20,344 bases of DNA from Nitrospinota bacterium (GCA_036231405.1 JAZAHK010000008.1:1-20344), one strand, 5' to 3'; positions 2-20,344 are shown, counted from the first letter of the stretch. A program made the numbers and translations. The notes: generated from the letters alone by a model not told the origin.

Positions 2-292
2 AAAGAAGCATGGATTCCTCCAGTTCTGAAAGCACAGGCACTTGAAGGAATTGGCATTGATATTGTTATTGATAAAATACAACAATATCAAAACTTTATG
101 AATAATAATCTAGAAATAAAATTAAATAAAGAAAAAAAGAAAATAGAAAATATTCTTTTGGAAATATGCAAAGAAGTAGCTGCCGAGAAACTATTTGAAA
201 GTGTAGAAACTCATTTAGATGAAAATGACATAAATTTGATTCTTGATAGAAAAAAAGATCCTTATTCCGTTGGTAGAGATGTGATATTCTAA
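2..292 (+). CDS. meaB: Methylmalonyl-CoA mutase-associated GTPase MeaB/ArgK, C-terminal fragment (5' end outside window)
   Basis: Frame is open from base 2: KEAWIPPVLKAQALEGIGIDIVIDKI...DRKKDPYSV. The W-x-PPVL-x-x-x-A-x-x-G-x-GI and terminal DPYS motifs are typical of MeaB/ArgK C-termini. The 98..292 ORF in the track is only its tail. Confidence 0.75.
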   Translation, partial: KEAWIPPVLKAQALEGIGIDIVIDKIQQYQNFMNNNLEIKLNKEKKKIENILLEICKEVAAEKLFESVETHLDENDINLILDRKKDPYSVGRDVIF

Positions 293-321
293 AATTAAAT
301 TTTTATAAATGGATATGATAA

Positions 322-651
322 TTGGAAAAAGCTGATAATTTCTCCGTCGTTTTCGTAACTGTTCCCACAAAGGAAGAGGGTGAAAGCATTGCGCGCGCTT
401 TAGTAGAAAGAGATCTGGCGGCATGTGTTAATATCATTCCTTCTGTGCAGAGTGTGTATAAATGGGACGGAAAATTGAATATAGATGATGAACTTTTACT
501 TGTCATTAAAGGAAGTTCCAGTGAACTGGAGACCATAGAAAAAAAGGTTCTCCAATTACATAGTTATGACACCCCTGAGGTGATTTCTTTTGCTTTAGAT
601 AAAGGAAACAAGGAATATCTGGATTGGATGAGTAATACGCAAGAAAAATAA
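322..651 (+). CDS. cutA: Divalent-cation tolerance protein CutA
   Basis: 109 aa with VFVTVP, IARALVERDLAACVNI, SVYKWDG, LHSYDTPEVI and YLDW, all CutA motifs. TTG start is uncertain. Confidence 0.95.
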   Translation: MEKADNFSVVFVTVPTKEEGESIARALVERDLAACVNIIPSVQSVYKWDGKLNIDDELLLVIKGSSSELETIEKKVLQLHSYDTPEVISFALDKGNKEYLDWMSNTQEK

Positions 652-681
652 ATAAATTCATATCGTTGTTTTGGAGGAGAC

Positions 682-858
682 ATGATCAAGATTTATAGTA
701 GCGTTATCATCCGCTTCTTAGTTGTCTTTTCGTTTTCAATAATTTTCCACATAAATGTATTTGCCTATGATGCAGAAGATCTGGCGAGATTTAAAAGTTC
801 TCAAACGTGTCCAAGATGCGATTTGAGTAATGCGGACTTGGAAGGTTTTAGAGAATAG
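682..858 (+). pseudogene. Truncated exported pentapeptide-repeat protein (58 aa remnant)
   Basis: GGAGG RBS at 673-677 and ATG at 682. Translation: MIKIYSSVIIRFLVVFSFSIIFHINVFA-YDAEDLARFKSSQTCPRCDLSNADLEGFRE*. This is a signal peptide (VFA), a CxxC cap and two pentapeptides (CDLSN, ADLEG), then TAG at 856-858 inside the 3' end of the convergent glnA. Confidence 0.65.
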
Positions 859-2194
859 TGAGATAATTATCTAGCTCAAAATCCGTTACCTGCCTTCTTG
901 ATCGCTCCCATTCAAGCTTTTTATTGCCTATAATCTTGGAGTGCAGTTCTTCTCCGAAAGTTTTCTTCATAAGTTCGCTATCTTCAGCTAGTTTGATTGC
1001 CTCGTTCAAATCAGAGGGCAGGGTGGCTATCCCTCTTGATCCACGATCTTCATCAGTTAGTTCGTGTACGTTTTCTTCCACAGCATCTACCGGATCATAA
1101 TTCTTTTCAATACCTTCAAGACCTGCAGCTAACATACATGCAAAGGAAAGATAAGGGTTACATGCGGAGTCAGGAGAACGAATTTCAATTCTGGTATCAG
1201 AATCTCTTCCTTTTCGTATGCTGGGGATTCGTATTAGGTCACTTCTGTTTTTATGAGCCCAAGAAACATAGATTGGGGCCTCAAAGCCAGGAACCAGTCT
1301 CTTATAACTATTCAACCATTGATTAAAAATTAACGTCATTTCGGGAGTATGTTTTAGCAATCCAGCAATAAAAGATTGGCAAACATCTGATAGTCCATCT
1401 TTTTTGTTTTCATCGAAGAAAATATTCTGTGAACCCTTGAAAAGAGATAGATGGGTATGCATTCCATTGCCGTTAGAATCACTTAGGGGTTTTGGCATAA
1501 AAGTTGCGTAAACGTTATGTCTTAATCCAACTTCTTTCACAACAAGACGATAAGTCATTGCATTGTCTGCCATGGCAAGAGCATCGCTGTATCTGAGATC
1601 GATTTCGTGCTGACTTGGACCCACTTCATGGTGACTGTATTCCACTCCTATTCCCATTTTCTCAAGAGTAATAACCGTCTCTCTCCGAATATCACTAGCG
1701 ACATCAAGAGGGGTAAGATCAAAGTATCCACCTTTATCAAGTGGTTCTAATGGCAATTCAGAAGATTTAAAATAGTAATGTTCGAATTCCATACCAGTAT
1801 AAAATGTGTAGCCTTTTTCGTTTGCCTTCTGAAGAGTTTTCCGAAGAACGTTTCTAGGATCTCCGTCGTAAGAGGTGCCATCCGGTAATCTGATGTCGCA
1901 GAACATCCTCGCTACTGTCCCACCATCTTTTGGGCGCCAAGGTAGTACACAGAAAGTCGTGGGATCTGGATGTGCGAACATGTCGCTTTCTTCAATACGA
2001 CTAAATCCTTCGATGGATGAACCGTCAAAAAGATGTCCATCATATAGCGCAGTTTCAAGTTCTTCTTTTGTGATAGCAAAACTTTTAAGAAAACCGAGAA
2101 TGTCCGTAAACCACAAACGTATAAATCTTACCTCCAATTCCCTGGCTTGTTTAAGAACAAATTCTCTATCTAGATTAGCATCTTTATTGTTCAC
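848..2194 (-). CDS. glnA: Glutamine synthetase type I (alpha-like)
   Basis: Motifs IRLWFTDILG, FDGSSIEGF, HHEVGPSQHEI, ATFMPKP, NGNGMHTHLS, NSYKRLVPGFEAP, IEIRSPDSACNPYL. Start moved to GTG 2194 because GGGAG lies 5 nt upstream (2204-2200); the track uses 2206. Confidence 0.95.
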   Translation of the reverse strand: MNNKDANLDREFVLKQARELEVRFIRLWFTDILGFLKSFAITKEELETALYDGHLFDGSSIEGFSRIEESDMFAHPDPTTFCVLPWRPKDGGTVARMFCDIRLPDGTSYDGDPRNVLRKTLQKANEKGYTFYTGMEFEHYYFKSSELPLEPLDKGGYFDLTPLDVASDIRRETVITLEKMGIGVEYSHHEVGPSQHEIDLRYSDALAMADNAMTYRLVVKEVGLRHNVYATFMPKPLSDSNGNGMHTHLSLFKGSQNIFFDENKKDGLSDVCQSFIAGLLKHTPEMTLIFNQWLNSYKRLVPGFEAPIYVSWAHKNRSDLIRIPSIRKGRDSDTRIEIRSPDSACNPYLSFACMLAAGLEGIEKNYDPVDAVEENVHELTDEDRGSRGIATLPSDLNEAIKLAEDSELMKKTFGEELHSKIIGNKKLEWERSRRQVTDFELDNYLTIL

Positions 2195-2237
2195 AGTTGC
2201 TCCCACTTTTATTTTAGGTATTTAATCTCAGAAGGTT

Positions 2238-2909
2238 TTATCCCTCTTCATCTTTTATAAATTTATACCCAACATTTCTGATGGTTTTAATATAATTTTT
2301 TCCTTTTGCCTCTATCTTCGAACGTATCCTTCTCACATGCACATCGACAGTCCTAGGACCACCAAAATAATCAAATCCCCATACCAGATTCAAAAGTTGT
2401 TCTCTATCGAATACTCTTTCGGGATTTTGAATCAAATGTTTTAAAAGTTCAAATTCTCGGAAAGTTAAATCAACAATTTCTCCATCTAATCTAATCTCAT
2501 ATCGGTCTTCATCTACCGTCAACCCTTCATTATTATAACCATTTTCTATGGGATTGTTCAGTTCGTGGTCTTTTTGTATACAAAGATTTTTGACACGTAG
2601 GATTAATTCCTCTTCACGGATAGGTTTTGTAATAATATCATCGGGCTCAAAAGGAGTTCCTATATTGGAGAGACGTCCAGTTTCAGATAAAAGAAGGATT
2701 GGAAGTGTAGTCCATTTTCTGATTTCAGAAACTTTAGGCAGAGCAGGAGCGTCATCAAGAAGAACAAGAGAAAGGCCGTGAGTTTTAATGCCAGAAAGAG
2801 CAGATTCCTCTTCCACCACTGTGCTGCAAAAATGACCTTCTCTGCGTAATGCTCTTTCTAGAGCATCTCCGAGTGATTCATCTGCAGTGTAAATTAATAA
2901 TTTTGCCAT
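2238..2909 (-). CDS. OmpR/PhoB-family response regulator with atypical receiver, GlnR-like
   Basis: C-terminal winged helix LTFREFELL...VWGFDYFGGPRTVDVHVRRIRSKI...TIRNVGY. The receiver keeps LLD and KP but has YTADE where the acidic pocket (VEDD) normally sits. Lies directly upstream of glnA; no kinase in the window. Confidence 0.88.
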   Translation of the reverse strand: MAKLLIYTADESLGDALERALRREGHFCSTVVEEESALSGIKTHGLSLVLLDDAPALPKVSEIRKWTTLPILLLSETGRLSNIGTPFEPDDIITKPIREEELILRVKNLCIQKDHELNNPIENGYNNEGLTVDEDRYEIRLDGEIVDLTFREFELLKHLIQNPERVFDREQLLNLVWGFDYFGGPRTVDVHVRRIRSKIEAKGKNYIKTIRNVGYKFIKDEEG

Positions 2910-2925
2910 GATTTGTTATCTTTTT

Positions 2926-4188
2926 TTAAATTTGTGCAATTTTATTTGTCATCACTATAAGACTATCAAGATTGTGTGCTGACATAAATTCATCACAGTA
3001 GGGTAGAGCAGTTCTCATGCCGCGGTCAATTGGTCTATATCCTGGACTGCCAAGAAGTGGGTTAAGCCAAATTAATTTATGACATTTTTTTCTCAGACGA
3101 TCCATCTCTTCTGACAGCAGATCTGTATCGCCTCGGTCCCAACCGTCTGAAATAATGATGGCAATTGTTCTGCTATTTAAAATTGTTCGACCATATTCAA
3201 AATTAAATGTTTTAAGACAGTTTCCTATTTGTGTTCCGCCGCTCCAGTCATGTACTTCAAGAGCAAGACGTTTTAAAGCTTGATTCACATCCTTATGTCG
3301 AAGATAAGGGGTTGCATCTGATAGTCTTGTGCTAAAAACAAAAGTTCTCAAAGACTTTATTTCACTTTGTAAACTATACAAAAATTGAATAAGAAATTGA
3401 CTGTAACTATCCATAGAACCTGAAACATCACAAATTAAAATGATTTGTGTTTTTTGGACTTTTCTTTTTTTTCGATACAATTGCAAGACTTCACCACCTG
3501 TTCGTACACTTTTCTTTACACTTCTTCTCATGTCAACTTCACTTGCTCTCATATCAGGTTTTCTGCGTCTGCTTATTTTTGTAGCAAGCTTTGGGATCAA
3601 TTGTGCGATGAGTCTTCTAAGTTGTGCGATTTGATTTATTTCGAGTGATGAGAAATCTTTATTGGATAATGTTTCTGAAGGGCTATAGGATGCAATGCCA
3701 TCATCTTCTTCCCCAGCCTCTCCAGGTTCTCCTCCTTCTTCGGAGTCATCTTCTTGTGGGAGTCCTGGGTTTTCGTTGCTTTGACCCTCAGCTTCTGCGT
3801 CGCCTTCTTCTCCTTGACTGGAACCTTCACCAGAATCTCCTTCTCCTTCATCTTCAAACTGTGAATCAACTTCAGCAGATTCTGCATCTGAGTTTGAGTT
3901 TCCTTTTTCGTCAAACCAGTACTGTCGAAAAATTGCCTCAAAAATTGCAGATTCATCTTGGCTGGCAATGAGATTTGATTTGCTTGCAATGTAGACATCT
4001 TCTATGCTGGTTATGTCAAGATTATCTAAGCTTCTGAATAGATCTATGATGTGACCGGAAGTTATTTTCATGCCACTTCTTCGTAGGACTCTACAGAATC
4101 CTACTACCTCACCTCGAAAACCTTTTCCGGGAATTCGTATTCGTCTTTTTTTTAGTGAACCTGTAATAACTGGTTTTATTACGGGCAT
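2926..4188 (-). CDS. vWA-domain CoxE-like protein
   Basis: MIDAS motif ICDVSGSM, plus FVFSTRL, WSGGTQIG, IISDGWDRGD and IWLNPL. Long Asp/Glu/Gly linker. Follows a MoxR ATPase. Confidence 0.9.
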   Translation of the reverse strand: MPVIKPVITGSLKKRRIRIPGKGFRGEVVGFCRVLRRSGMKITSGHIIDLFRSLDNLDITSIEDVYIASKSNLIASQDESAIFEAIFRQYWFDEKGNSNSDAESAEVDSQFEDEGEGDSGEGSSQGEEGDAEAEGQSNENPGLPQEDDSEEGGEPGEAGEEDDGIASYSPSETLSNKDFSSLEINQIAQLRRLIAQLIPKLATKISRRRKPDMRASEVDMRRSVKKSVRTGGEVLQLYRKKRKVQKTQIILICDVSGSMDSYSQFLIQFLYSLQSEIKSLRTFVFSTRLSDATPYLRHKDVNQALKRLALEVHDWSGGTQIGNCLKTFNFEYGRTILNSRTIAIIISDGWDRGDTDLLSEEMDRLRKKCHKLIWLNPLLGSPGYRPIDRGMRTALPYCDEFMSAHNLDSLIVMTNKIAQI

Positions 4189-4191
4189 AAA

Positions 4192-5711: not shown

Positions 5712-5759
5712 TCTTTGATCTCCTTGTAACTAAAAAATATTTTTCACAGTTTCTAAAAG

Positions 5760-6626
5760 TTATTTTTCCATTTTAATTTTGAGTGCTTGACATAGAAGTC
5801 TTCTTGGCAGCACTTCACACATTAATTTTCTATATTTTGCAGAAGCTCTGATATCGTCTATAGGGCTTGAAATTTCCATACATAATTCAGAAGCTTCTTG
5901 TACTATATTTAAGTCTGCTTTCTCTCCCTCTAGCAATTTTTCGGCATCATAACATCTGATTGGAGACTCATTCACAGAACCTAGTGAAATTGACGCTTTT
6001 TTAATCGTCTTCCCGCTTGTTTCTAGAATGACGGCGACACCTACTACGGTAATCGCCATAGCATTTCTTCTTGCTAATTTATAGTATCCCCATTTGTGAT
6101 TTTTAGGAGGTGTTGGAAAGGAGATCCGAGTTATTAATTCACCACTCTTAATAGCAGTTTTTCTATAACCCAATAAAAATTTATCGAGAGGAACAGTTCT
6201 TTTCCCTCTTGGTCCCGCTAAATTTACTATGGCTCTTAATGCAAGAAGTGGTGGTATTGCGTCTGCAGCGGGTCCACCATCTACAATATTCCCTGCGATG
6301 GTAGCGCGGTTCCTAATCATAGGCCCAGCAAACTTTTTGGCCATTGCTGCCAAAATTGGAACGTTTTTATTTAAATCTTTATTTTCAATTAAGTCTGTGA
6401 TGGTAGTAAGTGCACCTAAACTCGTAGTTTTTTTAGAAACGGTTACTCCTCGTAAGGCATTTACCCTCATTAAGTCAATCACAAGATCAGCGGGTCCATC
6501 ATGTTGATGGCGTAACTCTGGAAGAAAATTTGTACCACCAGCAATGTATTTTACTTTTTTTGATTTTTTCGCAGTACTTAAAACTTCGTTTATTGTTTTT
6601 GGGGCTACAAAATCAAAACCCTTCAT
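5760..6626 (-). CDS. FAD-binding medium subunit of a xanthine dehydrogenase/CO dehydrogenase-family enzyme (CoxM/CutM-like)
   Basis: IAGGTN, IRNRATIAGNI, PAAD, SPIDDIRASAKYR. Start set to ATG 6626 (MKGFDFVAPK) with GAGGAG at 6642-6637; the track uses 6659. Confidence 0.93.
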   Translation of the reverse strand: MKGFDFVAPKTINEVLSTAKKSKKVKYIAGGTNFLPELRHQHDGPADLVIDLMRVNALRGVTVSKKTTSLGALTTITDLIENKDLNKNVPILAAMAKKFAGPMIRNRATIAGNIVDGGPAADAIPPLLALRAIVNLAGPRGKRTVPLDKFLLGYRKTAIKSGELITRISFPTPPKNHKWGYYKLARRNAMAITVVGVAVILETSGKTIKKASISLGSVNESPIRCYDAEKLLEGEKADLNIVQEASELCMEISSPIDDIRASAKYRKLMCEVLPRRLLCQALKIKMEK

Positions 6627-6731
6627 CGCCAGTTTTCTCCTCGTTATGAAATAAGTCAAGATTCTAGGCTATATACAATAAAATAGCCTGCATCAAAATG
6701 TATATTTACAATGGCATGAAACAGACCAAGA

Positions 6732-8926: not shown

Positions 8927-9913
8927 TTGGAAGAAAGATTATTTTCAGGATGTGTAACAGATGTAGAAGAATTTCGTTTAGGTCATGCTTCTGATCTTGA
9001 AGCATATACCGGGGTAAGTGTAATTCTTTGTCCTGAAGGAACTGTTGGGTCCTGTGAATTGAGAGGAACTGCTACTGCCACAAGAGGGATTGATGCACTA
9101 CGTGTTCAACATCTTGTTGGGAATATTGATGCAGTTGTTTTGACGGGTGGAAGCGCATACGGATTGGCCTCGTCAGAAGGAGTTATGCAATTTTTAGAAG
9201 AAGAGGGAAGCGGATTTCAAGCTGGAAACTACACTGTTCCAACAGTGGCATCGAGTGTGCTTTTTGATCTCAATTTTGGAAATGGCAAAGTGAGACCAAC
9301 TTCTGGAATGGGTTATTTGGCTTGTAAAACATCTTTTTCTAAAGAAGGTCCTCAGGGCAGTGTAGGGGCAGGTACGGGTGCTACTGTAGCAAAACTTCTG
9401 GGAAAAAAAGGTGCTATGAAAGGGGGACTAGGTACAGCAAGTTGTCCTCTTCCTTCGGGTGGTACAGTTGGAGCAATTGCTGTCGTGAATGCATATGGTT
9501 CTGTTTACGACTACACAACCAATACAAGAATTGCCTCTCCTTTGAAAAGCGCAAAGAGCAGGGAATTTGTTGATACTGAAGAGTATTTGAGATTGAAGGG
9601 TCGACCCATAAAAGGATTTGGAACTTCGGGTGAAAATACTACTTTGGTCGCTGTAACGACGAATGTGAATTTAAATAAAAACGAAACGCATAAACTTTCT
9701 CAGATGGCAGCCAATGGATTGATTCTTTCTGTACGTCCTTCCTATACAACGGTAGATGGTGACGTTGTTTTTGCTCTCTCTTACGGCAAGTTCGAAGAGT
9801 CGTTGGATGTAGTAGGGGAAGCTGCAAAATATGTAGTAGGTCAAGCTATTTGCAGGGGAGTTAAAGAGGCAAACGGATTCGGTATGATTCCCTCTTGGAA
9901 AGACTTGAATTGA
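8927..9913 (+). CDS. P1/S58 (DmpA-like) peptidase, L-aminopeptidase/D-esterase family
   Basis: LTGGSAYGL, GSVGAGTGAT, KGGLGTAS, AVVNAYG, ENTTL self-processing motif, DGDVVF. Confidence 0.9.
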   Translation: MEERLFSGCVTDVEEFRLGHASDLEAYTGVSVILCPEGTVGSCELRGTATATRGIDALRVQHLVGNIDAVVLTGGSAYGLASSEGVMQFLEEEGSGFQAGNYTVPTVASSVLFDLNFGNGKVRPTSGMGYLACKTSFSKEGPQGSVGAGTGATVAKLLGKKGAMKGGLGTASCPLPSGGTVGAIAVVNAYGSVYDYTTNTRIASPLKSAKSREFVDTEEYLRLKGRPIKGFGTSGENTTLVAVTTNVNLNKNETHKLSQMAANGLILSVRPSYTTVDGDVVFALSYGKFEESLDVVGEAAKYVVGQAICRGVKEANGFGMIPSWKDLN

Positions 9914-11094
9914 CAAAGGATATTACTACAAAAAGAGTTTTGAGAAATTGGAAAATTAGAGACACCTTCGATCTAGGTTTGATTAGTTCTGCACATGGAA
10001 TGAGCGATGGTTTCGCTAACTTGATGGTTCCAGTTCTGGTTATGATTGTTGCAGAATTTAGTCTTTCTCCTATACAGTCGGGAATGTTAATTGGTTCTCT
10101 TAGCCTTTCCGTTATGTTATTTCAGTATCCTCTTTCTATTTATTCTGATTTTTCTGGGAAAAGAAAACCAATTCTTTTGGCTGGAATGTTCTTAGCTACT
10201 ATGTCTTTTCTCTGTGTGGGGCTCGTTTCAAGCTTCCATTTTTTGCTATTACTTACATTTTTGGCTGGTGCAGGGAACTCAGTTTATCATCCATGTGGAA
10301 CTTCCATGGTTGCAAAAAGATTTGAAGAGAATCGCGCGTTCGCAATTTCGGTTCATGGATTAGGTGGGAATGTGGGAATGGGTATTCTTCCAATTCTCCT
10401 TACTTTTTTTGCTGCTTATTTAGGATGGCGTTCCGCTGTAGTTATTTGTGTGTTTCCTACTCTTATATTTTTATTTTTAATCTATCATCGCTTCTCTGAC
10501 GTTGTAGATAAACGGTCAGTTGAGAATCAAAAAGTAAAAGTAATTTTGCGGGATGTTTTTAGAAACAACAAAGTAGTAATTTTGGCAATTGCATATATGC
10601 TTCGAGGTATGTGTACTAAAGGGACAGTTGGTTTCTTCCCTCTCATTGCAGCTTCTAGGAATGTTGACATATCTCTAATTGGGGTTGCCATTTCCATACA
10701 TTTTATACTAGGTGCAATTACGAAACCTATAATGGGTTATCTTTACGATAGGTTAGGAGCAAAGTTCGCTCTAATGGTTCCTTTCTTTATCACTGGGGTC
10801 TTGGTTTTTGCAATTCCATTTACTAGATCCACCATAGAACTTTTAACTGTTTTTGCTTTAGTTGGTGCATTTAGTCACGTAAGTCCTATTATACTTACTG
10901 CAACTGCAGATTTTGCAGACAAAAATGTTTTAACTTCTTCTGTAGGGTTTATTTATACTTGTCATGGATTGAATTTTCTTTCTCCTCTCATAGGCGGAGT
11001 AATCGCTAACGAAGTAGGAATCGATGCGAGCTATTTCTTCTACAGTTTTTCTGCTTTGCTAGGACTTTGGTTTGTTCTTAAAATGGAGAAATAA
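9895..11094 (+). CDS. MFS transporter
   Basis: About 12 hydrophobic segments; motif A variants SDFSGKR and GYLYDRLG; AH..SD and GNSVYHP motifs like the Fsr-type subfamily. Start uncertain. Confidence 0.9.
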   Translation: MERLELTKDITTKRVLRNWKIRDTFDLGLISSAHGMSDGFANLMVPVLVMIVAEFSLSPIQSGMLIGSLSLSVMLFQYPLSIYSDFSGKRKPILLAGMFLATMSFLCVGLVSSFHFLLLLTFLAGAGNSVYHPCGTSMVAKRFEENRAFAISVHGLGGNVGMGILPILLTFFAAYLGWRSAVVICVFPTLIFLFLIYHRFSDVVDKRSVENQKVKVILRDVFRNNKVVILAIAYMLRGMCTKGTVGFFPLIAASRNVDISLIGVAISIHFILGAITKPIMGYLYDRLGAKFALMVPFFITGVLVFAIPFTRSTIELLTVFALVGAFSHVSPIILTATADFADKNVLTSSVGFIYTCHGLNFLSPLIGGVIANEVGIDASYFFYSFSALLGLWFVLKMEK

Positions 11095-11140
11095 GATACT
11101 TATATATACGACTAACTCAGATTCTTTGAAAGGAAGTTAA

Positions 11141-11530
11141 ATGAATCGTGAATATTTTAAAGGTACGTGGCAAGAAAACAGATCTTTCTCTCCAGCAGTT
11201 GTGACCCAAGGCGGGAAACAAATTTGGTTAGCAGGAGTTGGGATGTGGCAGGACGAGGATGGGAATTCCCTAGACGGCAATTTTGAAGCACAAGTACATG
11301 CTACCTTTCGCCAAATAGAGAGGAATCTTGCAACTGCAGGTGGAAAATTGTCGGATATTGTGACTATGACAGTTTTTATAAAGGATGTTAGAAATGGAGA
11401 TAAACTAACAGAGCTAAGAAAGCAATATTTTCAGGATGGTTATCCAGGTAGTGCTCTTATTACAGTAAGTGCTTTTGCGAGACCTGAAATGATGGTTGAA
11501 ATTCAAGCTATTGCTGTTGTAACCGATTAA
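11141..11530 (+). CDS. Rid (YjgF/YER057c/UK114) family protein
   Basis: FSPAV, IWLAG, LATAGGKLSDIV, MVEIQAIA; AAGGAAG RBS. Has PGS in place of the PAR catalytic motif. Confidence 0.9.
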   Translation: MNREYFKGTWQENRSFSPAVVTQGGKQIWLAGVGMWQDEDGNSLDGNFEAQVHATFRQIERNLATAGGKLSDIVTMTVFIKDVRNGDKLTELRKQYFQDGYPGSALITVSAFARPEMMVEIQAIAVVTD

Positions 11531-11750: not shown

Positions 11751-12068
11751 ATGTCAATGATTTACTGTTCAGGTTGTGGTTCTGAAATACATAGTACCGC
11801 GAAAAATTGTCCATCATGTGGTGCGGCTCAACCAGGAATAGAGGGGGGCAATAGTGAAGCTAGTCCTAAAAAAAGATTAGTTGCATTAGTCTTAAACTTT
11901 CTTTTGGGAATTTTGGGTGTACACAGATTTTACGTTGGGAAGGTCGGAACAGGTGTTTTGCAGTTCTTTACCTTGGGAGGTTTATTTATTTGGTCTTTCA
12001 TAGATTTCATCTTAATTCTTTGTGGAACTTTCAAAGATATTGATGGGAAGAGATTGACCAATTGGTAA
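11751..12068 (+). CDS. Zinc-ribbon plus TM2 domain membrane protein
   Basis: CSGCG...CPSCG ribbon; TM2 motif LGILGVHRFYVG...TLGGLFIWSFID; GGAGG RBS. Confidence 0.88.
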   Translation: MSMIYCSGCGSEIHSTAKNCPSCGAAQPGIEGGNSEASPKKRLVALVLNFLLGILGVHRFYVGKVGTGVLQFFTLGGLFIWSFIDFILILCGTFKDIDGKRLTNW

Positions 12069-12104
12069 ATTATTTTTAATTTTTCCTATTTTCTGGTCTT
12101 AAAA

Positions 12105-12530
12105 ATGCCATCTAGTGCTCTGGAAGATTTCGTACGTGATTTGAAGAAAAAATTTCTATTTTGGGTTAAAAATCAAGACCGATTTGTACTTATAGGTCTT
12201 ATTTTTTCTATGATACCGATTCCTCCATCATTTTTAATTGGGTTGTTCATCGGTTCAATAAACCTTTTCCTCTTTCTAACAGGAAAATTGGAAAGAAGAC
12301 ATTTTAATTTAATCCTTTTGACTATTTTTATTTCAATTTTTAATTTATTGTTAACGGGCTATATTTATTTTTCTATATACAAGACTTTCTGGATGCTGGA
12401 TATTTTCAGGGTTGGTGTGATAGGTTTCACAAAAAATTATTTTTCGTTAATTGAACGATTTCTTTTTTGGGTGCTTGACTTTGTGAGAAATTTTTTTCTA
12501 GGGCACGATAAAATGGCTCAGACTGTATAA
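12105..12530 (+). CDS. Hypothetical membrane protein
   Basis: 141 aa ORF with 2-3 hydrophobic segments, co-oriented and tightly packed between the two TM2 genes. Confidence 0.65.
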
Positions 12531-12541
12531 AGGGATATGAT

Positions 12542-13012
12542 ATGGAAGAGAACCGAAGGAGTGACGAAAAGTATTGTTTTTCTTGCGGGAAAGTTCTACA
12601 TGATAGTGCCGATTCCTGCCCCCATTGTGGTGCAAATTTAAATACAGAGATTCAATCCGTTGCACCTTCTTCCCAAAGTAAAATGCCTCAAAATGTAATT
12701 AGCGATGAGGTTTTTTGCAGACATTGCGGTTCTGCGATTCATAAGAGTGCTCCTACATGTCCTAAATGTGGAGGGATGAATATGTCTACCACTAGTTCGG
12801 GCATGATCAAAAGTAAGACTACTGCTGGTATTTTAGCTCTTCTTTTAGGTGGTTTTGGAGTACATAAATTCTATTGTGGGAAGGTTGGTTTGGGCTTCTT
12901 ATATTTAATCTTTTTTTGGACCTTTATCCCAGGAATCATTGCCTTTGTTGAAGGAATAATATACTTAACACAAAAATCTGACGTTGAATTTACTCGAAGA
13001 TATTGTGCATAA
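12542..13012 (+). CDS. Double zinc-ribbon plus TM2/NINE domain protein
   Basis: CFSCG...CPHCG and CRHCG...CPKCG ribbons; [24 protein letters not shown]...[17 protein letters not shown] is a TM2/NINE motif. Confidence 0.88.
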
Positions 13013-14499: not shown

Positions 14500-14691
14500 T
14501 TGCAAGAAATTGAGCATTTTTTTCATTGCCCTTATTGCCTACAAAAAATCTCGATGCTTTTGGATCTTTCATCAAACATCCAAGAATACATAGAGGATTG
14601 CGAGGTTTGCTGTCAGGGAATACATATCTCTTATCATTCATCTAACGAAGAAGTGAAGGATTTTAGAGTTTTAAGACTAGATTCTGTCTGA
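14500..14691 (+). CDS. CPXCG-motif cysteine-rich protein
   Basis: CPYC...LLDLS...QEYIEDCEVCC pattern characteristic of the Cys_rich_CPXG family. Confidence 0.85.
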   Translation: MQEIEHFFHCPYCLQKISMLLDLSSNIQEYIEDCEVCCQGIHISYHSSNEEVKDFRVLRLDSV

Positions 14692-14708: not shown

Positions 14709-16316
14709 TTATTCAAGAAGCAGACTTATGGAGGGCAATACCTTTTCAGACGTGAAGGGTAAATAGGTGTCTTCACTGAAGATGGGCATGCCTATCGATG
14801 AAGGGTTAATGAAAATTATTTTAGCACTGTTTCTTCTCGCTTCTGCGACTAATTCTACTGCAGAAGAAATTTTTAATTGCGTCCCAATGATTATAAGAGA
14901 ATCACAAGTTTTGAATTTTTCCTTAGACTGTTCCCAATCTTTGACATTTAAATTTTCTCCGATTGCGATTACGGAAGGTTTTAAGAATCCATTGCAAATC
15001 TCGCAAATCATTTCTGCATTTTCCCAGATAGTGTTCTGAGGCCAATTTGTTTCATTTTGACAATTTAGACACTTGACTTTTTGGATATTTCCATGCAGTT
15101 CAATTACATTTATAGAACCTGCTTTCTGATGGAGCCCGTCCACGTTTTGAGTGACGATACTATTTATCCAACCTTTCTTCTCCAAATCTGCTAGGACATT
15201 GTGAGAAATATTAGGGGTTGCTTTAGTGGATATATTTCTGAAATTTGAACAGGCAGACCAATATTTTTTTCTAGAGAGAGGTGAAGTTAAGAAATTGCCA
15301 TATTCATATTCTGCAACTGAATCCCCACGTGGTAACCAGATACCTGACGCATAATCAGGTATTCCAGAAGCTGTGCTAATTCCCGCTCCAGAAAGAACGA
15401 TAGTTTTTCCTTTGTATTTTTTGGTTTCTTTTATTTTTTTTACTGCATCCCATACAAGCGGATTTAAGGAGAGTCTCGATTTATCTTTATTTTTTAGCGT
15501 GATAAGTATAGATATCCACGTTCCCAAAATAAACGGCATCATTAAAGGTTCGGGTACCCATTTGAAATTCAAGTAATAATAAACAATCCAAATAAGGCTT
15601 GAAGAGATAGTTGCAAGAATTCCAGTTTGGACGCCAATTTTAGAATTAGGAAGAAAAATCGCAAAACAACAAAAAAATGCAGGTGCAACAGTAAATCCCC
15701 AAAGTGAAACTGGTCCAATCCAAGAGTTGAAAAGAAGTTGTCCTGACATTGATGAAAAGATAGCAACAATTACAAAAGATGATAATGCAGGGAGTGGTGC
15801 TTCCAAAAATAAGACCAATCCAACGAGGAATACACAGATAATAGCTCCTATATTACCGAAAGAAATTAAATTAGAACTTATCCAAAATGAATCTCCGAAC
15901 ATTAAGAAGATCGTCTCGAAGATCCATGCAGTAATCAGGGATGAAAATGCAAGTGGCGGAATCTTGAGACTTTCGAAATAGGGTCTTGTGAATCGATCTA
16001 TTGCTATGCATAAAAAAACTGATGGCAAAAAGAGAAAACTCTTTGAATCAAGTCTAGATAGAGTGGCTCCCCAAATAATTCCAAGTATTGCCGGATTGTA
16101 ACCAAGAATTCCTAATAACCAGTAAGGGTTATTAGATCTGCGTTTTGGTCTAATGGATTCTACGGCAATAGATGCGCCGATCAATGCACCTGCAGCGCCA
16201 AATGGAGAAACAAAGAAAATAGCTAAGAGAATTAAAAGACCATTGATGGGTTTATTAGAGAACGCAATTTGAGCTAGACTCGAAAAAATAGCGTTGATAG
16301 ATTTTTTAAAATTCAT
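14709..16316 (-). CDS. Urea-transporter (UT) family membrane domain fused to a C-terminal Sir2/sirtuin NAD-dependent deacylase domain
   Basis: N-terminal UT-like motifs LAQIAFSNKPINGLLIL, GILGYN, PPLAF, LWGF, PLMMPFILGTW. C-terminal sirtuin motifs SGAGISTASGIPDY, PNISH, TQNVDGLHQKAG, ELHGN, CLNC...CEIC, LKP, IGT, INP. One uninterrupted frame. ATG 16316 overlaps the upstream stop. Confidence 0.85.
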   Translation of the reverse strand: MNFKKSINAIFSSLAQIAFSNKPINGLLILLAIFFVSPFGAAGALIGASIAVESIRPKRRSNNPYWLLGILGYNPAILGIIWGATLSRLDSKSFLFLPSVFLCIAIDRFTRPYFESLKIPPLAFSSLITAWIFETIFLMFGDSFWISSNLISFGNIGAIICVFLVGLVLFLEAPLPALSSFVIVAIFSSMSGQLLFNSWIGPVSLWGFTVAPAFFCCFAIFLPNSKIGVQTGILATISSSLIWIVYYYLNFKWVPEPLMMPFILGTWISILITLKNKDKSRLSLNPLVWDAVKKIKETKKYKGKTIVLSGAGISTASGIPDYASGIWLPRGDSVAEYEYGNFLTSPLSRKKYWSACSNFRNISTKATPNISHNVLADLEKKGWINSIVTQNVDGLHQKAGSINVIELHGNIQKVKCLNCQNETNWPQNTIWENAEMICEICNGFLKPSVIAIGENLNVKDWEQSKEKFKTCDSLIIIGTQLKISSAVELVAEARRNSAKIIFINPSSIGMPIFSEDTYLPFTSEKVLPSISLLLE

Positions 16317-17703
16317 GTCCAGGTTGGCGTAGTCGTTTCGGTACAAAATCTAATGCAAAAACGTCCTCCCATATTTCCTTCCTACGAATCGTTTCAGGAC
16401 CTTGAGGCCCAAGGAGCACTACAGGAGGTCTTGTCTGAATGAACTGCATCGATTGTGTAAGACAATACGCTCCCACATTAGCGAAGAGCAGGGGAGACCC
16501 TACTTTTAATTCTGGAAGAAGAACACGATCTCTTAGAATGTCAATTTGCATACATAGTGGCCCGTAAATCCGGACAGGGTGAAGATTTTCGACTAACTCT
16601 TCTGTTTCCTGAGGTGTTTCAACGTTATGGTTATACCAGTATGCAGTAGGAAGTATATTTACTCCAGCATCCACTACGACCGCAGTTCCTTGATTAAGAA
16701 TTTCTTTTTTTGATATGACAGTGCAAATTAGGAAACAAGGAGGATCTATAATAGCTCTTCCCGGTTCTAGAATAAGAGTAGGCTTTTCTTTGAAAAGATT
16801 TTTTTCGTTTTTGATCTGATTTAAAATTATTTCAGCATAAGGTGCAAAGGTTATTTTCTGATTTGGTATTTTTTGTTGCCCATTAAATTCTGGTTTGAGT
16901 TGATTTCCGGAGGGAAAGCCACCACCGAGATCAATAGAATTAGGATGTAATCCTAGTTTCTTTGCCTCTCCTACTGTTGCAAGCAATTTTGCGGCACCAT
17001 ATTTGTATACGTTGGGGTCCATTACATATGTTCCCCCATGAAAATGTAAAGTATCTAGTCTAAGTTTAGGGTTAGATGCAATTATTTCTAATGCTTTTTG
17101 GCAGTCTCCATTTTCTATATTGAAACCAAATTTAGTCCATGAATTTGTATCGTAGAAAAAATTGATTCGTATCCCAACTCCAATTGGATTTTTGTATTTT
17201 GATACGATTTGTATGATCCTGTTTAGTTCTTCGAAATTGTCAATATTAACTAAGGCCCCTTCTTTAAGTGCTATTTCTAATTCTGAATTCGTTTTGTGAG
17301 GCCCGTTAAAAATTATATTTTCTGGTGATACTCCAAGTGATTTAGCAAGAGAATATTCCATTCCAGAAACTACTTCTGCGAGAGCACCTTCTTCATGAAG
17401 AATCGAGCATACTGCAGGTAAATAATTGGTTTTATAGGAGTATGCTATTTTAGTATTTATTTCAGATGTTGTAAAAGTGTCTCTAAAGAGTCGGAATTGA
17501 GATCGTAAGGTACTTTCCGAAATAATAAATACTGGGGAGCCAAATTCTTCAATTATTTGATTGAGGTTATACGGTTCTGGGAGAGAAGAGACCTCATTCG
17601 CTTCCCGGATTTGATCTGATACTTCAAGAAGTCGATGTTTTCCAATTGAATTTACAGAAAGGTACTCAAGTAATGGTGGTTCGTACTTCTTAAGATTGCT
17701 CAT
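16306..17703 (-). CDS. Fold-type III PLP-dependent decarboxylase (LysA/Orn-DAP-Arg family), atypical
   Basis: YSYKTN (PLP lysine), IIFNGPHK, KFG, HFHGG, DLGGGF, EPGR, DAG, GPLC, GAY. ATG 17703 with GAGG upstream; the track uses 17763. Confidence 0.88.
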   Translation of the reverse strand: MSNLKKYEPPLLEYLSVNSIGKHRLLEVSDQIREANEVSSLPEPYNLNQIIEEFGSPVFIISESTLRSQFRLFRDTFTTSEINTKIAYSYKTNYLPAVCSILHEEGALAEVVSGMEYSLAKSLGVSPENIIFNGPHKTNSELEIALKEGALVNIDNFEELNRIIQIVSKYKNPIGVGIRINFFYDTNSWTKFGFNIENGDCQKALEIIASNPKLRLDTLHFHGGTYVMDPNVYKYGAAKLLATVGEAKKLGLHPNSIDLGGGFPSGNQLKPEFNGQQKIPNQKITFAPYAEIILNQIKNEKNLFKEKPTLILEPGRAIIDPPCFLICTVISKKEILNQGTAVVVDAGVNILPTAYWYNHNVETPQETEELVENLHPVRIYGPLCMQIDILRDRVLLPELKVGSPLLFANVGAYCLTQSMQFIQTRPPVVLLGPQGPETIRRKEIWEDVFALDFVPKRLRQPGHEF

Positions 17704-19843
17704 GGTGTAAAATTCCTCTAGAAGCGTATAAAGCAAATCTTTCCGCTTCGACTTTATATTCATGACAAGTTCGTAGAAAAATTAAATCCTCTTTTCGTTC
17801 TTTTGGAAGTGTGTCTATTCCAAAAAGAGAGAGCACGGTAGTTAGTGGTAAGTTTACACCGAGATCAGATGTAAACCCAATCCAAGCTGGAAAGCGGGGA
17901 TTAATTTCGATTAAATTCAAAGTCTCTTTTGTTATGTCTCTTATAAATTCAAGTTCAAAGGGGCCTTTCCATTGTAGTTTTGAAAGATAAGGGGCTAAGT
18001 TTTCTGTTAGACCAGGTAATGATACTTTTATTGCACCCCAAGTATTTCCCTTTTCACATTGAAGAAGCTTTTTTACCCCAACCACTTGCAATAAATTAGA
18101 ATTATGGTCACATACCCCTGCAACTGTAAATTCATCTCCAGCAATAAATTTTTGCACTATAATTTCTTCATGTCCGTTATTTTTCATTTCCAGCCATACG
18201 GCGTGAGCGTGTTGGTAGTTATACACTTTCTCTGATCCTCCATTAATACCCTTTATAACAAGAGGAAAGCCAAGAGTCTTTAACGACCTAGAAAGCTGAC
18301 TATCATTATTCACCATCATACTTTCAGGAATTCTAAAAGCCGTCCAATTTTTTTGCTTCATGTTGTGCAGATGTTTTTTTGAACGATTTTCGTAAGTTTT
18401 TAAAGAAGGTAATAACATTTTAACATCTATTTTCTTAAGATTATCTTCTATTCTAATAAATTTTTCTATTTCATGATCTAGACATGGAAGGATGACATCA
18501 AGACCTAAATTTTCCTTGATTTGTTTTATACATTTCGTGAGATCGGCTTCGTTATCTGTATCAGGGAGCCTATAAATAGAGTCAAAAAGAGAAGGGTTGT
18601 GTGCACCCGAATCGTACGGACCATATCCTAGGCCATATAGTTTTTCTATTTCAGCTTCATTACGTAACGCCCTAGCTACACCAAGACCAGGCATGACTAC
18701 ATCAAACGAGCTTATTCCTGTGACAGCAATTTTGTATCCATTCTTGGTAGATTTTATTCTTTTGTGATTATTAGAAAGTGGTGCAGAGATCTCTCCAAAG
18801 CGTCCAAATTTATCAATCAAATCAGCGGGTAGGGAAAATTCGTATGTATCGCGAACGTAAGCGGTGCCTGCTCTTGGTTTTGGAATTCTGCGACGACGTG
18901 GTTCTAAAATCTCACGAAGGAGGAGCCCAGGTAGGTTACAACCTGCAAATTCAGAGACGACGATCCAATTCGGGAATCTACAATTTATTTCTATTAGGTA
19001 GAATCGTCCAGCTTCTTGTTGTTGGCTAATAAATTCCAATTCTAATGGTCCACGCCAGTGGAGTTTCTTTATTATTGTACGTGCATGTTTCTCCAATTGA
19101 GGGTCCTCAATAACTGAGCCAACAACCCCTTTTCCTCTTTCATTGATTCCTAATTTCCTTACTGGAGTCATACCAAGTATTGAATTATCTTGACGGCAGA
19201 CGACAGCAACAACGTACTCGTCTCCTTCTATGAACGGTTGAAGAAGAACCCCACCTCCCCATTTTGCGTTTAAGCGAGAAGCCTCGTAAATTACACTTTC
19301 TCTAGAATGAACTTTTTTAGAGTCTGCGACGGTTCCTTTTACGATCAGTGGGTATCCGATTTGATCTGCATAAAAAGGTACGTTTGCTATATTGGGTACA
19401 TGAATCGTATTGGGAGTTAAAATATCGTTTCGGTAACAAAAATAGGGTAGAAATATCTTTTTTACAGCATCCAAATCTTCTTGATTTGGAAGCAATGTTT
19501 TAATTCCATTTCTTTCAAGTTGTCTTGAAAGTCTGGAGTAAGTTTCCACTTCAAGGTCAAGACACGGAATGATTGCATCTATTGGTCGTTTGGCGTGTAT
19601 TTCGAGAATTCTGTTTAACGTAGTCTGATCACCAGAAGAGAGAGGTGGCATAAGATGGAGTCGGTCTATTAACCCTGAAGGCCAAGCTCCAGAAGACCAA
19701 ACATCGTAGGTTAACCCTTCAATTTCTATGCTGTTCCCAAAGTCATATCTTAGCGTTCTTGCTACTGCATTTCCGGGTTCAGGATTGTCTAAGCCTGAAA
19801 ATCCAGAGACAGCGACCCTTATTTTACTTTTCTTCTTTCGCAC
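17690..19843 (-). CDS. Tandem double ATP-grasp (carboxylate-amine ligase-like) protein
   Basis: Two homologous halves: GYPLIVKG/GFPLVIKG, QPFIEGDEY/QKFIAGDEF, WRGPLELEFI/WKGPFELEFI, LIEINCRFPNW/LIEINPRFPAW. Confidence 0.9.
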   Translation of the reverse strand: MRKKKSKIRVAVSGFSGLDNPEPGNAVARTLRYDFGNSIEIEGLTYDVWSSGAWPSGLIDRLHLMPPLSSGDQTTLNRILEIHAKRPIDAIIPCLDLEVETYSRLSRQLERNGIKTLLPNQEDLDAVKKIFLPYFCYRNDILTPNTIHVPNIANVPFYADQIGYPLIVKGTVADSKKVHSRESVIYEASRLNAKWGGGVLLQPFIEGDEYVVAVVCRQDNSILGMTPVRKLGINERGKGVVGSVIEDPQLEKHARTIIKKLHWRGPLELEFISQQQEAGRFYLIEINCRFPNWIVVSEFAGCNLPGLLLREILEPRRRRIPKPRAGTAYVRDTYEFSLPADLIDKFGRFGEISAPLSNNHKRIKSTKNGYKIAVTGISSFDVVMPGLGVARALRNEAEIEKLYGLGYGPYDSGAHNPSLFDSIYRLPDTDNEADLTKCIKQIKENLGLDVILPCLDHEIEKFIRIEDNLKKIDVKMLLPSLKTYENRSKKHLHNMKQKNWTAFRIPESMMVNNDSQLSRSLKTLGFPLVIKGINGGSEKVYNYQHAHAVWLEMKNNGHEEIIVQKFIAGDEFTVAGVCDHNSNLLQVVGVKKLLQCEKGNTWGAIKVSLPGLTENLAPYLSKLQWKGPFELEFIRDITKETLNLIEINPRFPAWIGFTSDLGVNLPLTTVLSLFGIDTLPKERKEDLIFLRTCHEYKVEAERFALYASRGILHHEQS

Positions 19844-20141
19844 TATCTATCAATCCCATGTATTCAAGTTGTTTTAATAAATTTTGAATATCTTGATCTG
19901 CGTCTTTTTTGGATACTTCATATTCGTTTATTAGTGCCAAAGACAATTTTTGTAGTGTCGACCCTGAAGAAAGAAGTTTTAAAAGAGTCCAAGCAGAAGA
20001 GTTGCATGTCAAAAGGGCAGCAGTGTATGTGTCAAACAATATTCCTCCACCATTCCCATTTGTGCCGTTAACGGCGCTACTGTCTAGTCGCGCTCTTACA
20101 TGTAGTTTCCAAATAGTGTTTTTCTTTTTTTGTGTTTTCAC
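19824..20141 (-). CDS. PqqD-family / RiPP recognition element (RRE) protein
   Basis: About 100 aa: GILFDTYT beta region, N..A..LL, then L..EYEV....A..DI..LL..L...GLI, the typical PqqD helical signature. GTG start overlaps the upstream TGA (GTGA). Confidence 0.82.
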   Translation of the reverse strand: MKTQKKKNTIWKLHVRARLDSSAVNGTNGNGGGILFDTYTAALLTCNSSAWTLLKLLSSGSTLQKLSLALINEYEVSKKDADQDIQNLLKQLEYMGLIDSAKEEK

Positions 20142-20344
20142 TTCTTTCCCTTTATCGATTGCATGCCACGTTTAGCATCAGGATAATAAGGATTAGTTTT
20201 CAAAGCATCTTGGAAGTATTTTTTTGCTTTGTCAGTTTTTTTCAATTTCAAAGACACATATCCTAATCCAGTCAAAGCATCTAAAGAGAAAGGATTTTTT
20301 TGTATAATTTTCTGAAATTGCTTTTCAGCTTTTTCGGTTTTTCC
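20138..20344 (-). CDS. Tetratricopeptide-repeat protein, C-terminal fragment (5' end outside window)
   Basis: Not in the ORF track. Translation GKTEKAEKQFQKIIQKNPFSLDALTGLGYVSLKLKKTDKAKKYFQDALKTNPYYPDAKRGMQSIKGKK* fits TPR consensus (A..LG, A..YF..AL...P). Confidence 0.85.
   Translation of the reverse strand, partial: GKTEKAEKQFQKIIQKNPFSLDALTGLGYVSLKLKKTDKAKKYFQDALKTNPYYPDAKRGMQSIKGKK

Follow-up and report, generated by a model that had tools for sequence, protein, structure and literature searches.

The closest described relatives of the gene cluster considered here are biosynthetic pathways organized around a decarboxylase. In rhizoferrin synthesis by Francisella (FslA/FslC, or FigA/FigC) and in the SbnH steps of staphyloferrin B synthesis, a pyridoxal phosphate (PLP)-dependent fold-III decarboxylase acts on a conjugate and is placed between two ATP-dependent ligations. 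In butirosin synthesis (BtrI/BtrJ/BtrK) an ATP-grasp enzyme acts twice around a fold-III decarboxylation, the substrate being tethered, and a protecting acyl group is removed later. The cluster to be compared with these systems occupies positions 20344 to 14709 (minus strand) of a 20,344-base stretch of DNA from a Nitrospinota bacterium (GCA_036231405.1, JAZAHK010000008.1; this whole stretch is called the window below). Its five genes specify the end of a TPR protein, a PqqD-like protein, a tandem ATP-grasp ligase, a fold-III PLP decarboxylase, and a membrane domain of the urea-transporter (UT) family fused to a sirtuin (Sir2). The operon is real and conserved; it probably serves to build an amine-bearing compound and to take an acyl group off it at the membrane, and its genes may make up one envelope-spanning pathway.

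FslC (structure 7kh2) is the nearest solved relative of the window's decarboxylase, but the rhizoferrin route relies on a synthetase for siderophores made independently of nonribosomal peptide synthetases (a NIS synthetase) where the window has an ATP-grasp ligase, exports its product through a major facilitator superfamily (MFS) transporter, and has no PqqD protein, UT-fold fusion, sirtuin or secreted TPR protein. BtrK (2j66, 7ru7) is a more distant but detectable relative (E ~4e-21); butirosin synthesis, however, tethers its substrate to an acyl carrier, none of which was found in the window, where a PqqD-like protein stands in that place, and deprotection is the work of a gamma-glutamyl cyclotransferase, where in the window it would fall to the sirtuin. 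The membrane and periplasmic parts of the window's system are without counterpart there. Its PqqD, ligase, decarboxylase, UT-fold and TPR families, and their core gene order, are common to a widespread sister cassette, described below, from which the window differs in several respects: the ligase is duplicated in tandem; a sirtuin takes the place of the M23 peptidase and C-terminal domain carried by the sister's UT protein; the TPR gene is far longer and situated upstream; a gene for a GCN5-related N-acetyltransferase (GNAT) is often added. Free sirtuins (CobB, Sir2Tm, Sir2-Af2) share with the window's Sir2 domain the catalytic core and the Zn ribbon; unlike them, the window's domain is fused to a 10-helix UT-fold domain inside a ligase-decarboxylase operon. 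All the curated equivalog models that were tried, for CobB, Yut, LysA, FslC and carbamoyl-phosphate synthetase (CPS), fail, while memberships at the level of the family hold.

The window is the entire contig C8 of a 2.09-Mb genome in 48 contigs (91.9% complete). When the decarboxylase is started at ATG 17703 and the fusion protein at ATG 16316, the four junctions between the five open reading frames (ORFs) overlap by 4, 20, 14 and 11 nt, exactly as in the first-pass annotation that chose these starts; the longest ORFs give overlaps of 4, 20, 74 and 41 nt instead. (ATG 16316 is also the start in the public gene call of the fusion protein, P0121, 535 aa.) That annotation, made from the sequence alone, had named the domains of all five genes and regarded them as probably a single coupled unit. 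Pfam confirms every one of the domain calls (all assignments lie above the gathering cut-off, and Pfam scores below are bits set against it), and both the gene overlaps and the recurrence of the set across genomes bear out the coupled unit. Chance adjacency of the five genes is ruled out, since their order is conserved across distant taxa.

The upstream-most gene has been split by the assembly. C8 holds the last 68 residues of the TPR protein (20344..20138, open at the contig end; Pfam TPR_1 39.1, cut-off 27.8); the missing upstream sequence, which the first-pass annotation had wanted retrieved, was found on contig C11, whose start carries the first ~1318 residues (3964..2) and, upstream of these, a GNAT gene and a gene for a short-chain dehydrogenase/reductase (SDR). 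In tblastn, the 1554-aa TPR protein of the same-genus genome G001 matches C11 with 89% identity over residues 2-1318 and C8 with 92% identity over residues 1487-1550. A second alignment of this protein to C11, at 49% identity over query residues 440-1547, shows that it contains long internal repeats, and these are the likely cause of the assembly break. In G001 the order of genes is SDR, GNAT, TPR, PqqD, ATP-grasp, decarboxylase, UT-Sir2.

How widespread is this arrangement? The first-pass annotation would have been refuted had homologues of these genes not co-occurred in other genomes. The same five are found in G001 and G003 (of the same genus), in G029 (from another family of the class, with identical order and a much higher G+C content), and in five loci with proteobacterial record titles, L015-L018 and L025. 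The tandem ligase is present in all three other genomes of the genus (one copy only in pieces), absent from all 38 other genomes of the family and from both genomes of other families of the order, and present in one of seven genomes of another family of the class, namely G029. Only 51 genomes are available for the phylum of the window itself. Of 401 genomes sampled around another carrier, G041, from the latter's phylum, none but G041 has the tandem form, and 47 have a single-module match. Protein databases hold 125 clusters of tandem ligases (at E 1e-10 or better) and about 75 of UT-Sir2 proteins; such names as these carry are "ATP-grasp domain-containing protein", "urea transporter", "NAD-dependent deacetylase" or hypothetical, and the 344-member ESM Atlas cluster of the tandem ligase is without a functional name. 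Among the tandem-ligase matches are the cultured organisms Sulfuritalea hydrogenivorans sk43H, Magnetovibrio sp. PR-2 and Colwellia psychrerythraea.

A survey of one genome per prokaryote species, yielding 80 loci and followed by tblastn and gene clustering, sorts the cassettes into two forms. The common one, the sister form, accounts for sixty-odd loci and consists of PqqD (~80 aa), a single ATP-grasp ligase (~350 aa), the decarboxylase (~450 aa), a UT protein of 710-760 aa with a fused M23 peptidase and one more C-terminal domain, and a TPR protein of 200 aa; a signal-bearing, barrel-like protein is often included. Its record titles range over Cloacimonadota, Ignavibacteria, Bacteroidota, Planctomycetota, Myxococcota, Zetaproteobacteria, one cyanobacterium and others, and the M23 HxH motif is present in 51 of 51 of its proteins. 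The tandem-ligase form comprises 11 full-length loci and a fragment, L030 (their titles are mostly Proteobacteria), along with the window's own genus and G029. Among the loci that were fetched the pairing is strict: 53 of 53 UT-M23 proteins go with a single ligase and 10 of 10 UT-Sir2 proteins with a tandem one, and no locus is mixed. The first-pass annotation had spoken of clusters of PqqD, ATP-grasp, LysA-like and UT genes, often with an M23 peptidase on the UT protein, and had suggested that the window would be a distinct variant of them. Those clusters exist, as the 53 UT-M23 proteins attest, and the window is indeed the rarer, Sir2 variant of a common UT-M23 cassette. It had also known of no characterized pathway with such a composition: none was found in full-text searches of the literature, nor any description of the gene set or of UT-enzyme fusions (subscription journals and supplementary files lie outside that coverage). 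A survey of RiPP recognition elements (RREs; RiPPs are peptides made by the ribosome and modified after translation) mentions ATP-grasp once, in a methods list, and, in the passages covered, makes no mention of decarboxylase, urea, non-RiPP or TetR (PMC12710340); its supplements, outside those passages, may list such neighborhoods.

In a quick maximum-likelihood tree of the decarboxylases (support given as SH-aLRT, the Shimodaira-Hasegawa-like approximate likelihood ratio test), sister and Sir2 types form one family, all Sir2-type sequences form one clade (support 95), and that clade lies inside or beside the M23 type. Within that clade the closest company of the window's genus is made up of sequences with proteobacterial record titles, among which it is nested; its classmate G029 sits at the base. 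This placement, taken with the patchy distribution, suggests horizontal transfer of the Sir2 form.

A further comparison, which bears on mechanism, is internal to the tandem-ligase form, where a group of loci has lost several parts jointly. The catalytic His of Sir2 has become Tyr, and the NAD motifs are degenerate, in L019, L021 and L024; it has become Leu in L107; in L023 the Sir2 domain is absent. An alpha/beta-hydrolase (dienelactone hydrolase/S9-like, with a GxSxG elbow) is encoded 3' of the UT gene in L019, L023, L024 and L107 and is fused to the UT protein, after an extra hydrophobic helix, in L021. The free hydrolases begin with a signal peptide, a lipobox or a signal anchor, so that, to judge from their N-termini, they most likely work in the periplasm. 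The putative catalytic tetrad of the N-terminal ligase module is degenerate in 7 of 7 of these hydrolase-type loci (the truncated L020 and L022 included). All 8 of the 8 loci that have an active Sir2 keep it intact; the C-terminal module of the hydrolase-type ligases is likewise intact. The TPR gene is present in 8 of 8 active-Sir2 loci vs. 0 of 7 of the hydrolase type. Thus the second ligase module, the active sirtuin, the TPR protein and, often, the GNAT behave as a single functional set, and the invariant core consists of one active ligase, the decarboxylase, PqqD and the UT domain. Because the seven hydrolase-type loci form one monophyletic subclade (SH-aLRT 99 in the quick tree), the joint loss counts once. 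The first-pass annotation had proposed that the sirtuin reverses a mark made by the other enzymes: some indirect backing for this comes from the loss of the Sir2 His, which tracks decay of the N-terminal module, though in one clade and as one event. That three unrelated modules cleaving amides or esters (an M23 peptidase, a Sir2 domain and an alpha/beta-hydrolase) are found at, or beside, the same UT protein points to a cleavage step tied to passage through the membrane.

(One further observation on these loci: beside PqqD, in the hydrolase-type loci only, lies a gene for a signal-bearing protein of ~205 aa, at 9326-9958 of L020, 9001-9618 of L021 and 5961-6482 of L107. The L107 copy is 53% identical to that of L020; the L021 copy, which was scanned, has no Pfam match; the TPR gene is missing from all loci of this type.)

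The tandem ligase (19843..17690; 717 aa; Pfam ATPgrasp_Ter 63.7, cut-off 29.1, in two stretches) is made up of an N-terminal module (18779..19843, approximately residues 1-355) and a C-terminal module (17690..18745, approximately residues 367-717); NCBIfam, like Pfam, gives two stretches. Both modules have the ATP-binding Lys and the E-x-N-x-R Mg/phosphate motif of ATP-grasp enzymes: K169/E285/N287/R289 in the first and K531/E646/N648/R650 in the second, tetrads (Lys, Glu, Asn, Arg) that we take to be catalytic on general knowledge of the family. The C-module tetrad is kept in 128 of 129 tandem ligases, and both tetrads are intact in 107 of the 129; in P0085 and P0098 the Glu of the N-module is changed to Gln. 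An AlphaFold2 (AF2) model of the whole ligase (pLDDT 92.9, pTM 0.92) finds its best whole-chain Foldseek matches in CPS large subunits (E ~1e-29), at 12% identity, a root-mean-square deviation (rmsd) of 13-14 A and a TM score of 0.46 by query; the CPS model TIGR01369 scores 38.8 against a cut-off of 1027, and the 717-aa ligase is without extra domains. Among structures matched by a single module 2pn1 ranks first (TM 0.86 by target), ahead of biotin carboxylases and an L-amino-acid ligase; NCBIfam and Pfam matches to D-Ala-D-Ala ligase are weak. The sister cassette's single ligases match the two halves about equally well (168 vs. 163 bits), so the tandem enzyme looks like the outcome of a duplication within the cassette's own ligase family. 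A search for motifs specific to the tandem ligase turned up none that is conserved enough.

The decarboxylase has the alanine-racemase fold of the fold-III enzymes; it extends from 17703 (465 aa) or 17763 (485 aa), both ATG, to 16306 (Pfam Orn_Arg_deC_N 115.2, cut-off 23.4; Orn_DAP_Arg_deC 50.6, cut-off 23). Its nearest solved structure, the N-citrylornithine decarboxylase 7kh2, matches at E 3e-54, and diaminopimelate (DAP) decarboxylase (E 1e-37) and the BtrK structures follow as weaker relatives. In a phmmer alignment with 7kh2 the KT, HxHxGT, DLGGG, EPGR, CMQxD-loop and VGAY motifs are all aligned, which is to say that the PLP Lys, the PLP-stacking His, the Gly loop, the EPGR motif and the catalytic Cys loop of a fold-III decarboxylase are in place (residue roles from the passages covered of PMC7857480). 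The scores for FslC itself (NF041039, 229.2 vs. a cut-off of 500) and for LysA (TIGR01048, 209.1 vs. 297.9) fall short; a separate LysA-like gene is located on contig C26 of the same genome. By sequence and motif, then, the enzyme is assigned to the FslC/FigC-like branch of fold-III decarboxylases. No NIS synthetase was detected among the window's genes or the cassette families scanned with Pfam. FigC and SbnH decarboxylate amino acids that have already been amide-joined to an acid, and FigC has been placed in a subfamily outside polyamine synthesis (PMC7857480, in the part covered). By analogy, this chemistry is the best hint at the kind of substrate, which would be an amide-conjugated amino acid.

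The fusion protein (16316 or 16346 to 14709; 535 aa from the second ATG, or 545 aa) is divided between a UT-fold membrane domain of ~285 residues (15462..16316; Pfam UT 56.4, cut-off 25) and a C-terminal Sir2 domain (14709..15461; Pfam SIR2 138.9, cut-off 24). The latter has the motifs of a sirtuin, namely GAGIS, TQNVDGLH, the catalytic His (ELHG) and four Zn cysteines (CxxC...CxxC), and NAD-dependent deacylation is its predicted activity. The nearest sirtuin structures are those of Sir2-Af2 (1ma3, E 3e-32) and Sir2Tm (1yc5); the top Foldseek matches of the fusion model are to Sir2Tm with an acetyl-peptide (27-29% identity), and in phmmer alignments to free sirtuins most of the aligned columns match. 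NCBIfam models of the CobB type score below their cut-offs (NF040867, 171.1 vs. 320; NF001753, 176.3 vs. 243). The catalytic motifs are complete in 76 of 80 UT-Sir2 proteins and the four cysteines are found in all 80. The fusion is the only sirtuin found in its genome (tblastn, E 1e-4). At L016 a second, free-standing Sir2 protein of 279 aa is encoded at 17101-17940, two genes 3' of UT-Sir2.

The membrane half belongs to the UT family by Pfam membership and is not an orthodox urea transporter. The Yut model TIGR03441 scores 38.2 vs. a cut-off of 274.6, so the protein is no equivalog; the G029 orthologue reaches a Pfam UT score of 113.4, in two stretches. The AF2 model of the fusion (pLDDT 91.9, pTM 0.85) is helical through about residue 300, and its Foldseek search gave, among the matches listed, only sirtuins and thus no structural match to the UT fold. 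The LPxxTxPF sequence of urea transporters is highly conserved from bacteria to man (PMC5311045, in the part covered); it is missing from both UT halves, even when the pattern is loosened, the window reading IPPLAFSS and PLMMPF, while many M23-type relatives keep it with Ser replacing Thr. The domain might import a small substrate, as the first-pass annotation had suggested. In the Sir2 and M23 fusions alike, the last UT helix is followed by a Lys/Arg-rich linker with no further hydrophobic segment. On account of this charged linker, and of the requirement of sirtuins for NAD+, the Sir2 and M23 domains most likely face the cytoplasm.

At the other end of the operon, the full-length TPR protein (about 1550 aa would be expected for the window's genus from the 1554 aa of G001) appears to belong outside the cytoplasm. 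All 46 clustered TPR proteins of the cassettes, the G001 protein included, start with a hydrophobic signal-like segment or a lipobox, and they share a conserved C-terminal repeat; judged by these N-termini they are most likely exported. An exported TPR protein cannot hold a cytoplasmic substrate together with PqqD, which tells against the role, as substrate holder alongside the RRE, that the first-pass annotation had given it. The GNAT of G001 is a 178-aa protein of the Acetyltransf_3 (RimJ/RimL-like) type. Upstream GNATs, 50-53% identical, occur in L015, L018, L025 and the window's own genus, which is to say in four of seven active-Sir2 lineages, and in none of the hydrolase-type loci.

The PqqD-like protein (20141..19824; 105 aa; Pfam PqqD 34.8, cut-off 23.4) is of the stand-alone RRE type; its start overlaps the TPR stop by 4 nt, and it overlaps the ligase gene by 20 nt. 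A member of the family is called in 65 of 83 loci, immediately before the ligase wherever it is found, so that an RRE domain adjoins a modifying enzyme as it does in RiPP clusters; the NCBIfam model of lasso-peptide PqqD chaperones gives 39.4 bits, under its cut-off of 70. A predicted PqqD-ligase complex scores 0.52 as compared with 0.10 for the best of three controls, the runs agreeing in at least 84% of contacts and partner pLDDT being at least 76; the mark applied is reached by 58 of 80 solved complexes and by 2 of 110 mismatched pairs, but among those passing at 0.60 or under are only 7 of the 80 solved complexes and both of the mismatches. The model thus lends weak support to the notion that PqqD probably binds the ligase. 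Scans of the five window proteins and of neighbors in G001 and G029 gave no match to a carrier-protein family. In three zetaproteobacterial loci of the M23 type (L083, L084, L089; in L089 at 1857-2648) a 263-aa protein joins a TetR-type helix-turn-helix (HTH) to a C-terminal PqqD domain, and this fusion suggests that a PqqD domain can serve as the ligand sensor of a repressor.

A PqqD/RRE domain normally implies a peptide substrate, and the first-pass annotation had accordingly offered a RiPP-like pathway. In its classical form that proposal finds no support: neither the stretch upstream of PqqD in 65 loci nor a set of 1096 small ORFs lying within ~6-8 kb of the ligase gene at 83 loci yielded a conserved small ORF, and the only clusters in the latter set proved to be antisense shadows of the decarboxylase plus two PqqD genes that had been missed. 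Two other candidates were discarded. The idea that PqqD acts like LysW, as a carrier whose acidic tail is conserved, fails because the C-termini of PqqD are not conserved; and three tandem 135-aa ORFs in G001 are rejected as precursors, having paralogues on at least 8 contigs and being absent at other loci. (The trio, whose members we judge by eye to be presumably cupin-like, precedes an ORF of 291 aa that, with its HxHxDH motif, resembles a metallo-beta-lactamase fold; together they lie upstream of SDR/GNAT, at 3256-4534 of L012 in G001 and on C11 of the window's own genome.)

These components can be assembled into a tentative scheme along the lines of rhizoferrin and butirosin synthesis, to which we give somewhat less than an even chance: two ligations flank a decarboxylation and are followed by an NAD-dependent deacylation at a UT-fold channel. 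The steps would be ordered as follows. In the cytoplasm the PqqD-like protein would work with the tandem ligase, whose always-conserved C-terminal module would join a carboxylate to an amino acid through an amide. The FslC-like enzyme would then strip the alpha-carboxylate from the conjugated amino acid and so expose a primary amine, on which the N-terminal module would form a further amide; in some lineages the GNAT might acylate it instead, or as well. The sirtuin, stationed at the cytoplasmic mouth of the UT domain, would remove the acyl group from an N-acyl-aminoalkyl moiety resembling acyl-lysine at the expense of NAD+, and the product would be passed over the inner membrane, presumably through the UT domain, to the giant secreted TPR protein. 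What the Sir2 variant adds is the hypothesis that the second ligase and the sirtuin may be a write-and-remove pair at the channel. A more ambitious version, unlikely when all its parts are required at once, has the sirtuin recruited as a biosynthetic release or deprotection enzyme that cleaves the N-module amide at the UT-fold channel during exit: the amide placed by the N-terminal module on the amine exposed by the decarboxylase would mimic acyl-lysine; the M23 peptidase, the secreted alpha/beta-hydrolase and the sirtuin would be interchangeable solutions for one amide-cleaving step; and PqqD would serve the ligase without a gene-encoded precursor peptide.

Several considerations weigh against the two-ligation scheme. 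The joint loss, a single evolutionary event, may reflect general decay instead of functional coupling, and the GNAT accompanies an active Sir2 in only part of the lineages. The UT domain is without the pore signature, so that conduction may be doubted; the PqqD-ligase complex passes only weakly; and PqqD ordinarily signals a peptide, yet no conserved small ORF accompanies it. Sirtuins, finally, are known as protein-lysine deacylases, and action on a small molecule, or on a diamine borne by a peptide, would be an extension by analogy.

Could the operon be a RiPP pathway after all, its precursor unlinked or evolving fast, with PqqD presenting the peptide, the ATP-grasp enzyme adding or cross-linking residues, the decarboxylase trimming a C-terminal or appended residue, and the fusion protein processing and exporting the result? 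We regard this as unlikely, although there is a case for it: PqqD exceeds its Pfam cut-off, has lasso-peptide chaperones as its nearest NCBIfam models, immediately precedes and overlaps the ligase and is predicted, by a weak pass, to contact it; the M23 peptidase on the sister channel resembles a leader peptidase on an exporter; and LytTR-type regulators lie upstream in Bacteroidota loci. Besides the failure to find a precursor, it is countered by the fact that PqqD in many loci abuts the preceding gene, by the narrowness of a UT-fold pore for a peptide (general knowledge of the family), by the sirtuin's being no peptidase, and by the TetR HTH-PqqD fusion with its intimation of ligand sensing. 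The sirtuin's own kinships lead in a different direction, to a regulatory acyl switch of the Pat/CobB kind, in which the GNAT would put an acetyl group on a lysine of the ligase or decarboxylase and the membrane-tethered sirtuin would take it off, while the UT domain senses some periplasmic or membrane signal. Ordinary protein deacetylases (Sir2-Af2, Sir2Tm) are the nearest relatives of the Sir2 domain, it is the sole sirtuin found in the genome, and the GNATs of four lineages stand only beside an intact Sir2; but an M23 peptidase, which fills the Sir2 position in the 53 sister proteins, is unfit for a reversible switch, the GNAT is RimJ/RimL-like rather than Pat-like and missing from three of seven active lineages, and the decay of the N-terminal module alongside Sir2 is left unexplained. 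Such a switch is accordingly rated as quite improbable.

The envelope offers another setting, in which a peptidoglycan-type peptide would be modified or salvaged, with the TPR protein and outer-membrane partners in the periplasm. Murein-type families are in evidence (the weak matches to D-Ala-D-Ala ligase and LysA, the M23 domain of the sister form), and the secreted TPR protein and the signal-bearing barrel-like protein do belong to the cassette. We nevertheless think this very improbable: the decarboxylase, closer to FslC than to LysA, misses the LysA cut-off; the genome has another LysA-like gene, on C26; both enzyme domains, M23 and Sir2, would most likely be cytoplasmic; and there are no Mur or Ldt genes in the cassette. 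Held in lower regard still is a CPS-like chemistry, by which the two modules would activate bicarbonate and then carbamate, making a ureido compound to be moved by the urea-transporter-like channel. The whole-chain fold matches to CPS large subunits, the resemblance of single modules to biotin carboxylases, the ExNPR-type motif of both modules and the UT-family partner all speak for it. The poor superposition and low identity of those matches, and the minute TIGR01369 score, speak against it, as do the look of an in-family duplication, the sister cassette's use of a single module, an L-amino-acid ligase that matches about equally well, and the missing UT signature.

The rest of the window calls for brief comment. 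On its plus strand a gene at 14500-14691 encodes a 63-aa cysteine-rich CPXCG protein (PF14255, 59.6 bits) and converges on the operon, with 17 nt between it and the end of UT-Sir2. At 11751-13012 (+) a 141-aa ORF with no Pfam match lies between the genes of two membrane proteins that each combine a zinc ribbon with a TM2 domain; encoded in a row are a peptidase S58 (DmpA-like), an MFS transporter and a RidA-like protein, overlapping or closely spaced, at 8927-11530 (+). The minus strand carries, at 2926-6659, genes for a CoxM-like FAD protein, a CoxS-like 2Fe-2S protein, an AAA (CoxD/MoxR-like) ATPase and a CoxE-like VWA protein. A molybdopterin large subunit is not among the window's genes; the same FAD, 2Fe-2S and molybdenum-cofactor (MoCo) families adjoin the cassette in L077 and a MoCo large subunit does so in G029, possibly by chance. 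Adjoining a glutamine synthetase gene, at 2238-2909 (-), lies a gene for a protein with an OmpR-type Trans_reg_C domain (residues 144-217) and no receiver-domain match in its first 140 residues.

What would such a pathway mean? If the proposal is true, this would be the first sirtuin to be placed inside a biosynthetic or export pathway and not in the regulation of proteins, the first enzyme-fused protein of the urea-transporter fold to have an assigned job, and an instance of a PqqD/RRE protein working without a precursor gene nearby. The occurrence of an M23 peptidase, a Sir2 domain and an alpha/beta-hydrolase at one position would then be a natural experiment that flags the step to be assayed. 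The family is not a small one, and its cultured carriers make work at the bench possible.

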